A stretch of DNA of 10,422 nt, filler included, from an uncultured virus (IMG/VR IMGVR_UViG_2049941000_000142) (lineage: Duplodnaviria; Heunggongvirae; Uroviricota; Caudoviricetes). It is 7 parts of one record of this genome, joined end to end, with 100 filler letters (N's around TTAATTAATTAA, not from the genome) between each part and the next. Parts side by side here need not be neighbours in the genome. Positions count along the whole stretch, not along the records: positions 6,276 to 8,825 come from IMGVR_UViG_2049941000_000142; 6 more parts are not named here. The stretch is one strand, 5' to 3'. The translations under genes were made by a program, and so were the position numbers. A model generated the notes under the pieces. It saw only the letters and a program-made list of their open reading frames with translations. It searched no databases and was not told the DNA's origin. Shown one piece after another: positions 3,521-8,925 of the stretch. Each line of letters opens with the position of its first letter. Within the stretch, counting starts at the first letter, position 1.

Positions 3521-3620
3521 NNNNNNNNNNNNNNNNNNNNNNNNNNNNNNNNNNNNNNNNNNNNTTAATTAATTAANNNNNNNNNNNNNNNNNNNNNNNN
3601 NNNNNNNNNNNNNNNNNNNN

Positions 3621-3955: not shown

Positions 3956-5026
3956 CTACTCTTTCCTATACGATGTGCAAAGGTATCCGTCCGCATTAAG
4001 AGGTAACCCTTCCATCCACGGCGCTCCTTTGCACATTAGCTTAATAATCTCATCGAGCATACCATCCTTCATGGGAGCAGTTATGATTACTTCGTCATGC
4101 ACTGTGGCACGTACATCATATCCGGCTCGGTCCAGGTTGAACAAAGCTTCTTTAAGGCAGTCTCTCGCCACAGCCTGGACACAGTTCTCGACAAGCTTAC
4201 CGCCGAAAGTCTCCGTCCTCTCCCACTTCTTCGTTGTCTGGATCTGAGTCATGTAAGTAAGAGATGCTCGGCCCCATCTGTCCTTGCCCATCTCTGCGCC
4301 CCAATAGGCTATCCGTCTGCCGGATGGAAGATTCATCCACAGCACTCCGTCCTCAAAATCAAACCGAATAGATCCTACTGTAGATTCTGTCGGCTCTTTC
4401 CTTTTAACACAACGGATGGCTGCAGACTCAATACTCTTCCAGAAAGCAACGATGTGGGGGGATGCGTTTCTCCATTTATCGACAAGGTCAATCATCTCTT
4501 CCTCAGTCATGGTCAGATGATACATGGATGTAAAGTTCAGCATTGCCCCTGTTGATCCACCATATCCGCAGGCGAGTTCAATGACCTTCCCGAATTTCCG
4601 ATACTCGCTGTTCTGTCCATGCTTCTCGACCGGGATACCAAACGCTCGTGAAGCCGACTCGCAGTAAATATCTTTTCCGGTAGCAAACGCATCCACTCGC
4701 CACTCCTCTCCGGCAAGCCACGCTATTACCCTTGCTTCGATTGCAGAGAAGTCCGCCACCGCAAGGGTCTGTCCGTCTTCCGGAATTATCATAGTGCGAA
4801 TGAGTGCAGACAATGCCGACTGAACACGAGGATACATACACTCAAAGTCTTCCTCGTCACCGAGCAGAGCAAGCATCCTGGCATCATCGAGATCCGGCAA
4901 TGTATCATGCGGTAGATTCTGAAGCTGTACAAGTCTCCCTGCCCATCTGCCGGTACCCGCTCCGTAGAACTGAAACGTACCTCGGACATGGTTATCCGCA
5001 CAGCATGATCTGAGAAACGCTTCATA
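3956..5026 (-). CDS. polA: Phage family A DNA polymerase, C-terminal polymerase domain
   Basis: In-frame extension of the 3956..4900 ORF gives YEAFLRSCCADNHVRGTFQFYGAGTGRWAGRLVQLQNLP. Motif A is ADFSAIEAR, motif B is RKFGKVIELACGYG, motif C is VHDE. Confidence 0.95.
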   Translation of the reverse strand, partial: YEAFLRSCCADNHVRGTFQFYGAGTGRWAGRLVQLQNLPHDTLPDLDDARMLALLGDEEDFECMYPRVQSALSALIRTMIIPEDGQTLAVADFSAIEARVIAWLAGEEWRVDAFATGKDIYCESASRAFGIPVEKHGQNSEYRKFGKVIELACGYGGSTGAMLNFTSMYHLTMTEEEMIDLVDKWRNASPHIVAFWKSIESAAIRCVKRKEPTESTVGSIRFDFEDGVLWMNLPSGRRIAYWGAEMGKDRWGRASLTYMTQIQTTKKWERTETFGGKLVENCVQAVARDCLKEALFNLDRAGYDVRATVHDEVIITAPMKDGMLDEIIKLMCKGAPWMEGLPLNADGYLCTSYRKE

Positions 5027-5126
5027 NNNNNNNNNNNNNNNNNNNNNNNNNNNNNNNNNNNNNNNNNNNNTTAATTAATTAANNNNNNNNNNNNNNNNNN
5101 NNNNNNNNNNNNNNNNNNNNNNNNNN

Positions 5127-5395
5127 CTTCATGGAGTCTCCTAATATCCGCTGCATCTTTTGCAGATAACTTTGATCGAGTTTGTCTTCCCTTAATCCGG
5201 ACAACATCTCTTTTATTTTCCGATACGGAATCATAACGGAGATTACAAACCCTATTGTCATGAGAGTCTCCATTAGTATGGCACACTTGCATCCCATCCG
5301 GCCTAGTTCCTAAAAACGCTAAGGCTACAAGGGAGTGTACATAAAAGGTCTTTCTATTTTCTTTATGGCCGATGTCCACTTGATAGTAGTTTCTC
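5127..5395 (-). CDS. HNH homing endonuclease fragment (HNH_3 type with C-terminal HTH), both ends in gaps
   Basis: FYVHSLVALAFLG.RPDGMQVCHTNGDSHDNRVCNLRYDSVSEN, then SKLSAKDAADIRRL. Hand-counted GC is about 41% versus about 48% in the adjacent polymerase sequence. Confidence 0.9.
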
Positions 5396-5405
5396 NNNNN
5401 NNNNN

Positions 5406-6126
5406 CAAGACCGGAGATCTCTTTCGCCTGTTCAATAAGCTTCTCACGATACTGATTCCCAATCCGGATAGCATTCTCTGCAAGCTTCGGCTCGATGCGG
5501 ACGCCCTTATCATTCATCCGCTGATCAAGACACCACAGCTTATGCTCCGAGTAATTAGGTCTCCACTTCAGAAGCTGCTCTCTTATGGTATTCTCAACCT
5601 CGACATCCCTGATGTTGTACTTGCAGAATGTTTCCCATTTGTCAGGAGCATGGGCAGGAAGATTGCGTGTTCTATGCCCATTAACTTTCGTGGGTCTGCA
5701 GGGAACACAGAAGTATCTGATCAGATCAGATCCCTCTTTCATCTTCGCTTTGTCTTCCGGCAAACCAAGAGCAGCACCTACGCCTTTCAGACTCATCGGC
5801 AATCCGCATGAAGCCGCAAGCACCATTGTGCAACTCCATTGCTCCGGTTCGCAGTATCTGCCGAGTGCTTTCGTCAGACACGTTCTTTCGAACGCAGCAT
5901 TGAATGCGGTCTTCTCTACATCCTTATCGTAGAGGTACTCAAGGATCTCTTCAGGGATATGCTCACCCTCGGCAAGCTTAACGATCTGCACAACACCATA
6001 GTCGCATGAGTAGGCGAACAGCAGTATCTCAAAGTCATCTGCTTCCACATATTTGTAAACCCCACAGGATATCAGATCAACAGAACTGAATGTCTCGATG
6101 TCTATGCTTAAAGTGTGTGGCTTCAT
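5406..6126 (-). CDS. polA: Phage family A DNA polymerase, N-terminal 3'-5' exonuclease domain
   Basis: ExoI SIDIET, ExoII AFNAAFER, ExoIII YNIRDVEVE, then LDQRMNDKGV. Ends at AKEISGL at a 10-N gap. Confidence 0.93.
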
Positions 6127-6276
6127 TTATCGTACCCGCATTGTGCCAGCGTATATCCTACGTGCTGAATATCGANNNNNNNNNNNNNNNNNNNNNNNNN
6201 NNNNNNNNNNNNNNNNNNNTTAATTAATTAANNNNNNNNNNNNNNNNNNNNNNNNNNNNNNNNNNNNNNNNNNNNA

Positions 6277-6551
6277 GAGCGTAACGGCTGTGCTACTTCT
6301 GCATCTACCTGTTGGTTGTAACTATCGAATCCATAAGAAACTACTATCATAGGAATGTAGCCACCACCCATGCCCATGCTTGCCGGAAGCGTAGTGCATA
6401 CTTCCGTATCTGTTATTGTCGCATGGTTCTGATTCGATTCAATGACTAGCACCTCGCTTCCCCCCCCATACGATCCGCCGGAAGCACGAAGTGATACAGA
6501 CTGATCGTCCTCGTACCATTCAAAGAATCTCTTCTCTGCATAACAGATCAT
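6277..6551 (-). CDS. Methyltransferase variable-region (TRD-like) module protein with its own start, 3' truncated
   Basis: AAGGAG at 6564-6559, 7 nt before the ATG at 6551. Modules SLRASGGSYGGGSEVLV, TTLPASMGMGGGYIPMIV and QPLRS. Confidence 0.75.
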
Positions 6552-6824
6552 CTTCTGTCTCCTTCAGTTGTTTGCGTTCTTTAACCAACTGCAACACACA
6601 CGGATACCCCTGTCCAGGCTTACCGCCATGCGTGGTAAGCTGATAAGCGATGTCGCTTACATAGACTCTTGCCTGCTGATTCTCATGCACAGAGTAGGCT
6701 TCAAGAATTAAGGGCGGATGTCCGTGATCTTCTGCTCTTAAAGTATGCGTGATATCCTCTGTGATATCCATCCGACCACCGCCCTGATCATTAAACACAA
6801 GCACGTTCAACCTCGACAAGAATG
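6520..6824 (-). CDS. Methyltransferase variable region (TRD-like modules), 3' part
   Basis: FNDQGGGRMDITEDITHTLRAEDHGHPPLI and YQLTTHGGKPGQGYPCV. Stop at 6520. Which upstream frame it joins cannot be determined across the 401-N gap. Confidence 0.75.
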
Positions 6825-7225
6825 NNNNNNNNNNNNNNNNNNNNNNNNNNNNNNNNNNNNNNNNNNNNNNNNNNNNNNNNNNNNNNNNNNNNNNNNNNNN
6901 NNNNNNNNNNNNNNNNNNNNNNNNNNNNNNNNNNNNNNNNNNNNNNNNNNNNNNNNNNNNNNNNNNNNNNNNNNNNNNNNNNNNNNNNNNNNNNNNNNNN
7001 NNNNNNNNNNNNNNNNNNNNNNNNNNNNNNNNNNNNNNNNNNNNNNNNNNNNNNNNNNNNNNNNNNNNNNNNNNNNNNNNNNNNNNNNNNNNNNNNNNNN
7101 NNNNNNNNNNNNNNNNNNNNNNNNNNNNNNNNNNNNNNNNNNNNNNNNNNNNNNNNNNNNNNNNNNNNNNNNNNNNNNNNNNNNNNNNNNNNNNNNNNNN
7201 NNNNNNNNNNNNNNNNNNNNNNNNN

Positions 7226-7458
7226 GGTATCTCCGACGACCATTCCTTCAGGGGGCCATCCGTCTTTAGGTACAGAAAGACCGGGCGCTTCCGGCTCAAC
7301 GACTCTAATGGATTCCTCAAGGACTTCTCTGAAGTCTTCTCCGTTGTGGCTGGAGAATATTCCGGGCACGTTCTCAAGGATTGTGAATCTCGGACGCACC
7401 CAGCTTCTAGCGTTTCGAACAGATTGATCTGTCCTTCGTAGTTGTTTATCATGCTCAC
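7226..7458 (-). CDS. Nested alternate-frame ORF inside the methyltransferase gene (candidate beta polypeptide)
   Basis: AAGGAG at 7468-7463 precedes GTG 7458 and ATG 7452. MINNYEGQINLFETLEAG...RTCPEYSPATTEKTSEKS...PVFLYLKTDG is open for about 77 codons up to the gap. Confidence 0.6.
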
Positions 7459-7661
7459 GCATCTCCTTTATTATCCGGATAGAATCAAAGAACAATCCGG
7501 AACGAGTTGTCTCTGCATCACCCTGCAGTTCTGATGTCATCCCCGCTCTTTTACCTGCGATGGAAACATCATGGCTACTGGCATGGAGAGCCGTAAGTGA
7601 TAACATCAACAGGCTCTATCTCCCACCCATTGATCTTCGTCACATCACCAAGCTGCTTCAT
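7226..7661 (-). CDS. DNA (cytosine-5) methyltransferase catalytic part (motifs III-VII), interrupted by a 7-nt insert at 7571-7577 (recoded or pseudogene)
   Basis: 7661-7578 reads MKQLGDVTKINGWEIEPVDVITYGSPCQ then TAG. From 7570, in the +1 frame, it reads DVSIAGKRAG...TRSGLFFDSIRIIKEMR...PRFTILENVPGIFSSHNGEDFREVLEE (rest of motif IV, V, VI ENV, VII). Confidence 0.9.
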
Positions 7662-7696
7662 GCTAGTTCCATCACCTCTTTTCCTTTTCCTTATTA

Positions 7697-8825: not shown

Positions 8826-8925
8826 NNNNNNNNNNNNNNNNNNNNNNNNNNNNNNNNNNNNNNNNNNNNTTAATTAATTAANNNNNNNNNNNNNNNNNNN
8901 NNNNNNNNNNNNNNNNNNNNNNNNN

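Follow-up and report, generated by a model that had tools for sequence, protein, structure and literature searches.

A rumen phage cytosine-5 DNA methylase gene interrupted at its catalytic site by seven bases that open with a stop codon: a candidate short translational bypass

Introduction

To begin with, natural cases of utilised translational bypassing are very rare, the known ones being T4 gene 60, the byps of yeast mitochondria and candidate terminases of Streptomyces phages. The present analysis concerns a rumen phage cytosine-5 DNA methylase gene that is interrupted at its catalytic site by 7 bases opening with a stop codon. It lies in a stretch of 10,422 bases from an uncultured virus (IMGVR_UViG_2049941000_000142), and this whole stretch is called the window below. 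In the accessible sections of a 2016 review (PMC5009743), utilised bypassing comprises T4 gene 60, Magnusiomyces mitochondria and, as a likely case, the Streptomyces phage terminase, and natural in-frame stop-hops are stated to be unknown. The synthetic stop-hops in E. coli (Weiss, Dunn, Atkins and Gesteland 1987), as described in the same sections, were engineered constructs, and their layout is shared by two of the loci reported here, L321 (CAA TAG CAT) and L454 (TGT TAG A TGT).

As in T4 gene 60 (PMC5009743), the proposed take-off codon of the window gene is followed directly by UAG; landing, there on a matching triplet, would here be on one that agrees at two of three positions, and in both cases the break falls near the start of a gene split by rearrangement (codon 46 there, codon 28 here). 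As far as these sources describe it, gene 60 differs in its 50-base gap, its take-off stem-loop, its KKYK nascent-peptide signal and the HNH nuclease MobA beside it, none of which was found here. The gene 60 cassette has been presented as a mobile element (bioRxiv 10.1101/2022.08.31.505936, 2022), and the leader and gap of the methylase genes may behave as a module in the manner of that cassette and its MobA cassette homologues. A second comparison is offered by the Streptomyces phage phiHau3, whose large terminase gene has two 10-base gaps, and by an S. catenulae prophage terminase gene with a 7-base gap (PMC10732093). In the available text of that paper, gaps initiated by UUA were present in 3 of 100 terminase genes, and the junction peptide was detected by mass spectrometry in E. 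coli. The methylase gaps resemble them in being short frame-disrupting inserts in phage genes, with flanks contiguous in relatives, a slow first codon and a proposed landing triplet that adjoins the resume codon. In the terminases, however, UUA, a rare sense codon bound up with the physiology of the host tRNA(bldA), acts as the trigger, whereas in the methylases this role would fall to UAG, with gaps of 4 to 9 bases, placed at the catalytic motif and present in well over 100 contigs.

The CUU UGA C site of prfB (RF2), a +1 frameshift site, shares a stop codon in the A site and an upstream element resembling a Shine-Dalgarno (SD) sequence as stimulators. In prfB, however, the P-site codon re-pairs in the +1 frame, the SD element stands 3 bases upstream and the shift is a fixed +1, features that CAG UAG lacks; moreover, the methylase relatives need 0, +1 and +2 shifts, and no SD element precedes the window site. 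The byp inserts of Magnusiomyces mitochondria are 27 to 55 bases long. Those of Magnusiomyces capitatus resemble the present case in that many short inserts are tolerated by jumping, with take-off and landing often matched at two of three positions (PMC5009743); as described there, they differ in being GC-rich, in occurring in 12 of 15 mitochondrial genes with an unassigned codon in the A site, and in not being tied to one catalytic motif. As regards the methylases themselves, the natural permutants treated in the accessible part of PMC5944983 start with motifs IX-X (the variable region) only, and that part holds nothing on coding gaps. Among its laboratory permutants, those at the II/III breakpoint were the most active, and an enzyme split after motif VIII was active as Mpe[280-61] + Mpe[62-279]. 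The breakpoint of the window gene and of its relative L081 corresponds to that of the engineered Class B permutants, unlike the natural permutants of that paper, a likeness of gene architecture only. A literature search, with subscription journals outside its coverage, returned nothing on coding gaps in methylase genes.

Results

The interrupted methylase gene

On the minus strand, positions 7589-7563 of the window read TCT CCA TGC CAG TAG CCA TGA TGT TTC. Frame 0 from ATG 7661 gives a short leader and then TAG (7577-7575), CCA and TGA, and the +1 frame from GAT 7570 gives DVSIAGKRAGMTSELQGD...RFTILENVPG..., opening DVSIAGKRAGM. The elements are as follows:

7672-7680, minus strand: Shine-Dalgarno-like AAGAGGTGA, 10 bases before the leader ATG at 7661
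7578-7661, minus strand: 28-codon leader open reading frame (ORF) MKQLGDVTKINGWEIEPVDVITYGSPCQ, ending in the catalytic Pro-Cys-Gln of motif IV (GSPCQ)
7578-7580, minus strand: proposed take-off codon CAG (Gln), the last sense codon before TAG
7571-7577, minus strand: coding gap TAGCCAT, with the stop TAG at 7577-7575 and the proposed landing triplet CAT at 7573-7571
7226-7570, minus strand: visible part of the downstream methylase frame (+1), with the resume codon GAT at 7570-7568 and motifs IV to VI

The Pro-Cys(-Gln) loop of motif IV is thus not contiguous as DNA, and it becomes contiguous with x-F/L/V-S-x-A-G only if 7577-7571 is skipped. The original prediction had described a 7-base insert in this motif whose omission restores the canonical sequence, and it proved correct in every detail. 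Sequence and coordinates match, readthrough meets TGA one codon on, and deletion of 7577-7571 yields GSPCQDVSIAGKR, the reading found contiguous in six intact relatives (P0005, P0127, P0129, P0006, P0131 and P0262). The leader aligns to positions 46-72 of the Pfam profile PF00145, and its start is shared with the intact relatives P0005 and P0129. Against that profile the 115 residues downstream score 27 bits (cut-off 22) and the 28-residue leader 18.8 bits, below the cut-off. The closest proteins have about 228 residues, start M(K/I/R)(Q/H)LGD and carry an unbroken GSPCQDVS(I/V)AGKR (P0005, 86%; P0006, 82%). In L082, the counterpart of the Shine-Dalgarno site is AGAGGGTGA, followed by 9 bases and ATG.

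Motif VI is visible as ENVPG, and the remainder of the gene is hidden by one further feature:

6825-7225, minus strand: masked stretch of 401 N over the 3' part of the methylase ORF (motif VIII QRRKR and the stop)

Motif VIII QRRKR was seen in the identical ORF P0004, which runs 201 residues from Asp, so that the methylase stop should lie near 6965.

The insert in independent data

The 7-base gap is real DNA that persists across samples. The Logan ORF P0004 matches the window at each of the 115 visible residues (100%) and starts MMLSLTALHASSHDVSIAG in the shifted frame of the window, and P0124 (ENA, 3 contigs) is about 95% identical with the same ..ALHASSHDVSIAG start. The stretch was found in 20 runs of 13 studies, the best-matching of which may be the source sample. 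In addition, runs X5, X7, X8 and X9, from four other studies (2021-2024), each have a contig across 7562-7592 with 0 gaps; the X8 contig shows full identity along 151 bases, and the itemised changes of the four runs all fall outside the stretch between 7395 and 7640. An assembly error, which had been listed among the alternatives, is therefore excluded for the insert by these bridging contigs and P0004.

The wider possibility that the DNA itself is heterogeneous, by a phase switch or gain and loss of the 7 bases, or that sequencing or assembly misled, is the least probable of the explanations weighed here. In its favour, the assembly of the source is highly fragmented, the insert lies partly between the copies of a direct repeat (GCCA..GCCA), and intact and gapped alleles coexist in nature. 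Against this, all five data sets have the same bases at the site, no indel variant is reported in the contigs (which hide rare variants), and deletion between the repeats would, as had been foreseen, give PCHD and not PCQD.

Both flanks of the gap are kept as protein. Since every copy carries the insert, the differences among copies arose with the insert present, barring recombination. Of the itemised variable sites in insert-bearing copies (leader or +1 frame), 10 of 13 fall in the third codon position (binomial P = 0.0016), and 22 base changes, 21 of them in the downstream frame, lead to 2 residue changes. By run, the base and residue changes number 5 and 0 (X5), 8 and 1 (X7), 1 and 0 (X8) and 8 and 1 (X9); X7 and X9 share D103G, and X5 includes a two-base change that leaves the residue unchanged. 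The third-position bias and the few residue changes therefore indicate that the downstream frame is read as protein. The leader has one itemised variant in the window lineage (7641, synonymous), and the test has little power there for that reason.

Recurrence of gaps at the catalytic junction

A stop plus a short variable insert directly after Pro-Cys or Pro-Cys-Gln recurs in homologues, as recoding had been expected to leave. The nearest 13 clusters at 90% comprise 32 member ORFs, of which 7 are broken at the junction, 22 are intact and 3 start too late to tell. The broken members are these:

P0004 and P0124: break at the junction, start ..ALHASSHDVSIAG
P0130: start MALHASSQDISIAG, which would imply TAGCCAA
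P0128: start MPIEDVSVAG, which would imply CAA-TAGAR-GAT, 5 bases
P0252 and P0254: start MPIAHDLSVAG, which would imply CAA-TAGCNCAY-GAY, 8 bases
L082/P0256: TGC-ATACGGT-CAA, read as DNA

Protein similarity retrieved 240 loci, and in 5 of them, from 4 contigs, the break lies between Pro-Cys and Gln; besides L082 above, these are the following:

L092 (same contig as L243): TGC-TAGGGT-CAA
L142: TGT-TAGC-CAG
L247: TGC-TAGGGC-CAG

Furthermore, the start of P0209 (MVHLVRQDLSIAG) betrays a break, and a search with P0209 returned 80 gut-phage loci. Of the 79 that could be parsed, 31 have TGT-TAGA-CAG (the TAGA clade) and 48 are intact. Thus, TAG opens 4 of the 5 gap types from unbiased retrieval, the fifth opening with ATA. 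Pattern scans of a viral collection gave these results:

TGTTAG..CARGAY: at least 117 matches, all of those listed being methylase genes; among the matches listed, TAGA 72, TAGC 38, TAGT 3 and one each of TAGGGT, TAGGT, TAGATGT and TAGACAGT
TGCTAG..CARGAY: 15 matches, 2 of them methylases (TAGC, TAGT) and 13 not
TGCCAR-TAG..: 4 matches, 3 of them methylases (TAGCAT in L321, TAGTGCAT in L322, and TAGCGCAT)
TGTCAR-TAG..: 6 matches, 0 methylases
TAA or TGA first: 36 matches, 4 of them methylases (TGACCGC, TGACAATGA in 2 loci, TGAAAATGA) and 32 not

By first codon, the methylase matches of the scans number at least 119 for TAG, 4 for TGA and 0 for TAA, so that UAG is strongly preferred. At least 126 gap-bearing methylase loci were found in the scans; 113 are of the permuted type, with a short stop-bounded leader that lacks motif I, 10 have motif I in the leader and the remaining 3 run past the end of the fetched DNA. 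The idea that only permuted genes carry gaps held in the sets retrieved by similarity and failed in the scans, where 10 of the 126 listed have a leader with motif I. Overall, the same apparent grammar (take-off codon, UAG, 1 to 5 bases, a triplet resembling the take-off codon, resume codon) recurs in many relatives with differing lengths.

Gaps were also observed in an unrelated cytosine-5 methylase family of ordinary motif order (..TYSFPCQ / TYSYPC..), in L321 and L322 (IMG/VR contigs of 132 and 190 kb), L465, L467 and L472. The gaps of this family of large phages are TAGCAT, TAGTGCAT and the 9-base TGACAATGA or TGAAAATGA. As an unrelated family carries like gaps, the device is not confined to one gene lineage.

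Gap lengths, landing triplets and possible signals

Gaps of 4, 5, 6, 7, 8 and 9 bases were observed in relatives, with downstream frames open to the end of the fetched DNA. The length varies even between near neighbours. The near-identical L321 and L322 have TAGCAT (6 bases, in frame) and TAGTGCAT (8), and three pairs of close relatives differ likewise, namely L454 and L411 (TAGATGT, 7, against TAGACAGT, 8), L377 and L374 (TAGT, 4, against TAGGGT, 6) and L381 and L430 (TAGA, 4, against TAGGT, 5). Since the same device appears across 0, +1 and +2 frame relations, the mechanism, if the halves are joined in translation, would have to be a bypass and not one fixed frameshift.

The ends of the gaps follow their take-off codons. 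Gaps of the Gln type end in CAT directly before the resume codon in the window, L321, L322 and L323, and Cys-type gaps longer than 4 bases end in GGT, GGC, TGT, AGT, CGC or TGA. The middle base of the triplet before the resume codon is always that of the take-off codon, and in L454 the landing triplet TGT is identical to its take-off codon. Such a resemblance is what re-pairing of a peptidyl-tRNA predicts. The geometry of a Gln take-off and a CAT landing, proposed originally from the window alone, is echoed in four other gaps (L321, L322, L323 and, as deduced from its ORF start, the P0252 type), with CAA taking the place of CAT in P0130 by the same kind of deduction.

These data also bear on recoding of another kind, in which the ribosome would shift by +1 at the 'shifty stop' CAG-UAG, or in relatives read through the stop or shift by +2, leaving 1-2 extra residues in the loop. 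In the window, as had been noted, a plain +1 shift would insert Ser-His and give PCQ-Ser-His-DVS (peptide ...GSPCQSHDVSIAGK). The commonest gaps have 4 bases and that of the window 7, both 1 modulo 3 and so fitting a +1 shift; a stop in the A site is a classic +1 stimulator (prfB; PMC5009743, in its accessible sections); and most Cys-type gaps have an SD-like GGTGGT 6 bases upstream of the Cys codon. Nevertheless, gaps of 5, 6, 8 and 9 bases occur in close relatives of those with 4 or 7 while the downstream frames stay open, the +1 frame offers the P-site tRNA no codon with which to re-pair (CAG to AGU, UGU to GUU), and in L347, which has TAGC where 30 loci with an identical leader have TAGA, such a shift would exchange Arg for Ser in the catalytic loop. 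Recoding of this kind was therefore judged unlikely.

A candidate signal in cis was found 12 bases before the Cys codon, where GGTGGTTCACCT is almost invariant in gap-bearing alleles (L161-L240, L346-L462). Intact alleles have other synonymous codons at this site (GGCGGCAGCCCA and others), and L142 and L381 carry GGCGGTTCGCCC there with the 4-bp stem retained. The element may act as an SD-like GGxGGT or through a possible 4-bp hairpin (GGUG..CACC). In the window, there is weak evidence of one structure:

7587-7617, minus strand: possible upstream hairpin, AGAGCC (7617-7612) pairing with GGCUCU (7592-7587) and ending 6 bases before the take-off codon

The 100-nt fold of the window has a z-score of -2.0, with 4 of 200 shuffles folding as well.

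Leader, downstream frame and descent of the gap

Purifying selection on both flanks had been named as a mark of recoding and was found in insert-bearing lineages, the evidence for the leader coming mainly from the TAGA clade. In that clade the leader has exactly 27 codons and begins with a GTG directly after a stop, preceded at a spacing of 4-5 bases by a strong Shine-Dalgarno site (AGGAGGTGAT or GGGGGTGAT), and L092, L247 and L082 share this layout of Shine-Dalgarno site, start and leader. Leader subtypes of the clade diverge at about 1/4 to 1/3 of their bases and keep KH.GD..K..G.E.E.V.C..GGSPC, with nonsynonymous divergence (dN) of 0.20-0.26 and synonymous divergence (dS) of at least 1.2. 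A downstream ORF of 415-639 residues is retained in 26 of 31 TAGA loci, the shortened share being similar in intact alleles. Its dN/dS ratio of 0.25-0.35 comes from indel-free pairs, the only usable ones, the others having been compared unaligned across indels. Moreover, a tree built from the initial 330 bases downstream, with 53 distinct rows, requires 4 changes of the gap state, of which well-supported branches demand at least 2, and places that state on deep branches. L247 and L092 both have TAGGGY, their downstream proteins being 55% identical and their leaders identical at 66 of 81 bases.

Two explanations that dispense with a joined product were confronted with these results. If the gap kills the gene, it would have to persist by hitch-hiking or because loss of methylation is favoured (for instance, against methylation-dependent restriction). 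Intact alleles do exist in close relatives, and in 5 of 31 TAGA loci the downstream ORF is shortened, in one case by the end of the locus. Yet intact alleles have similar numbers of shortened ORFs, purifying selection operates within gap-bearing lineages, the gap state reaches deep branches, and L247 and L092 share TAGGGY despite their divergent downstream proteins. Moreover, random knock-outs would not cluster at one codon junction or open with TAG in 4 of 5 types. Inactivation was accordingly rated as decidedly improbable.

Alternatively, the leader could be a small upstream ORF, with the downstream frame translated by an internal start or by termination-reinitiation into a Cys-less, catalytically dead methylase-like protein or one chain of a two-chain enzyme. 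The downstream frame is clearly under selection, and ORF callers find an in-frame ATG 7606 or TTG 7609 in the window and a GTG in the TAGA clade (P0209). Nevertheless, no Shine-Dalgarno site precedes ATG 7606, TTG 7609 or that GTG, and the downstream frame contains neither a conserved start codon nor one with a ribosome-binding site; this includes the region near the stop in L142, L082, L092 and the window. Gaps of 6 bases put the GTG out of frame with the surrounding motif still kept (L374), and the methylase sequence of the leader, Pro-Cys included, is left unexplained. Separate translation is thus quite unlikely, though a little less so than inactivation. Neither a pseudogene nor an independently started Cys-less protein accounts for these observations on the leader, the flanks and the tree.

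Proposed mechanism

A programmed short translational bypass is the best reading of the 7-base gap, with a probability of roughly 55%. Ribosomes would start at ATG 7661, make the 28-residue leader ending in Pro-Cys-Gln and meet UAG in the A site, where most of them would probably terminate. In a fraction, the peptidyl-tRNA(Gln) would release CAG, the mRNA would slide by 7 bases, the tRNA would re-pair with CAU at two of three positions and decoding would resume at GAU. The product would have the canonical catalytic loop GSPCQDVSIAGK and would be the active catalytic subunit of a circularly permuted, multi-part cytosine-5 methylase. Only an exact hop would then yield active enzyme, the default product being a harmless 28-mer. 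The hop itself, its low efficiency and a gating of the methylase level are inferred; the throttling of methylase output that the original prediction suggested may be the purpose of such an arrangement, and the computational tests named with that proposal came out as recoding predicts.

Several points weigh against this bypass. The landing triplet of the window, CAT, is a His codon matching CAG at 2 of 3 positions, and the commonest gap, TAGA, matches its take-off codon at 1 of 3 (AGA against UGU). Before the window gap neither a nascent-peptide signal nor an internal Shine-Dalgarno site was found, and RNA folding was not significant, six 100-nt z-scores being -2.0, -0.74, 0.56, -0.11, -0.17 and -0.03, with nothing in common among the structures but the possible 4-bp hairpin of Cys-type gaps. 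The element GGTGGTTCACCT is confined to Cys-type gaps, and the Gln-type gap of the window is without it. Selection on the leader is shown mainly in the TAGA clade, the window's own lineage having a single itemised leader variant. The four-run comparison used contigs, in which minor variants are hidden and 0 to 4 differences per contig are un-itemised; the gaps of P0130, P0128, P0252/P0254 and P0054 were deduced from out-of-frame ORF starts and not read as DNA; and the pattern scans demanded a stop codon, which makes them blind to the frequency of gaps without one. Finally, the gap is dispensable, because intact alleles coexist among close relatives (P0126, P0005).

A removal of the gap before translation, by RNA-level excision and religation or by realignment of the polymerase, was considered as well. 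In L081 the gene immediately upstream of the methylase encodes an RNA ligase (PF09414), which speaks circumstantially for such a removal, but no known mechanism excises 4 to 9 bases precisely and the sequences are not slippery runs, which makes it very improbable. Reassignment of TAG was rejected: it would lead to TGA one codon on, TAG ends 2 of 12 ordinary ORFs of the window, and a search of the window and of 12 loci gave no suppressor tRNA. A homing-nuclease cassette of the gene 60 kind found no support: HNH-like matches within 4 kb were obtained for 0 of 31 gapped and 0 of 47 intact loci (tblastn, with the HNH of L081 as the single query), and no HNH family match was obtained in the three ORFs upstream in the window (Pfam, PHROGs).

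Circular permutation and recognition modules

Most of the more distant relatives are longer by about 48 residues at the N-terminus, where motifs I (SLFDGSGGF) and II are found. In the 39-kb relative L081 (70% identical), positions 4986-7327 hold an ORF with motifs IV-VIII, then several recognition-module ORFs, and the last methylase ORF has motifs IX-X followed by I-II. This order indicates that the enzyme is circularly permuted, with a new N-terminus between motifs II and III, and split after motif VIII, and the permutation is the reason why the gene starts only 28 codons before the gap. Neither motif I (FxGxG) nor motifs IX-X were found in the methylase ORF or elsewhere in the window, where scaffold breaks and N runs intervene. 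The window counterpart lies at 6276-7661, and its recognition part is the following:

6276-6824, minus strand: two ORFs with TL-type target-recognition modules (..ITHTLRAEDHGHPP.., ..CTTLPASMGMGGGYIP..), separate from the catalytic ORF

A tblastn search with full-length relatives also puts these two ORFs in the recognition region. A run of 8 G lies at 6460-6467 (minus strand) inside a small recognition-module ORF (..SGGSYGGGSEV..). In L081, an in-frame TGA and then a TAG separate the end of the catalytic ORF from the point where coding resumes, a NUMOD4/HNH nuclease gene is inserted among the recognition modules, and tRNA-Gln(UUG), tRNA-Ile(UAU) and tRNA-Leu(UAA) lie downstream (coordinates of these side features and the RNA ligase gene in L081: 5646-5700, 6195-6539, 3687-4805 and 9635-10204).

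An overlapping reading frame

A further ORF overlaps the methylase gene:

7226-7458, minus strand: visible start of an ORF in the next (+1) frame, from GTG 7458 or ATG 7452, preceded by AAAGGAG at 7469-7463

This ORF has 135-175 residues and extends from just after the IKEMRE codons, which are the source of AAGGAG, to beyond motif VIII (5197-5700 in L081). Its C-terminal motif ES.LSQILE..KY.LS.KAC.GIL.RAERRGK.LP occurs in 199 of 221 related loci. Over codons 80-160, the third-position entropy of the methylase frame drops from 0.97 to about 0.2, and in codons 141-170 first positions are more variable than third. Suppressed synonymous variation of this kind is the signature expected of a real overlapping gene. 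Searches of Pfam, PHROGs and NCBIfam assigned the ORF to no family. Its N-terminal part varies freely in the window lineage, and in L161/P0209 an indel fuses the methylase frame to it. The overlapping ORF belongs to the anatomy of the gene and not to the gap.

Make-up of the window

The window is a chain of small scaffolds, a pseudomolecule rather than one contig. Six N44-TTAATTAATTAA-N44 linkers were located at 1049-1148, 1908-2007, 3521-3620, 5027-5126, 6176-6275 and 8826-8925, and there are further N runs, eight of 10 N and three sized gaps (394, 401 and 500 N). With scaffolds joined by linkers, gene order across the linkers is not established, and window ORFs called through N or ending ..LIN are artefacts of linkers or N runs. 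The interrupted methylase gene sits in a 536-base contig (7226-7761), for which blastn gave no match among phage records or plasmids. A family A DNA polymerase was found in two pieces on different scaffolds (5127-6126 and 3956-4900, minus strand). The first piece, which is the exonuclease part, continues beyond an N10 gap as an HNH_3 nuclease domain (Pfam), which suggests a homing-nuclease insertion in the polymerase gene.

Discussion

The comparison of relatives leads to a broader proposal, put forward tentatively and at somewhat less than even odds. Short stop-hop gaps of UAG plus 1 to 5 bases may be widespread in gut and rumen phages, where they would serve as a selected, frame-independent decoding device set exactly at the catalytic residue of DNA methylases, and a module of Shine-Dalgarno site, start, 27-28-codon leader and gap may spread between methylase genes by recombination. 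If true, these genes would form the first large natural family of stop-hops. The more than 100 natural variants, which differ in gap length, take-off codon and landing triplet, are a ready mutational series for the rules of short-range hopping. Moreover, gene callers break these methylases up or cut them short, as P0004, P0209 and others show, so that the methylation capacity of phages is underestimated. For the biology of these phages, the findings suggest that the dosage of the methylase is gated at its catalytic codon, which would amount to a tunable, possibly RF1-sensitive gate on phage DNA modification.

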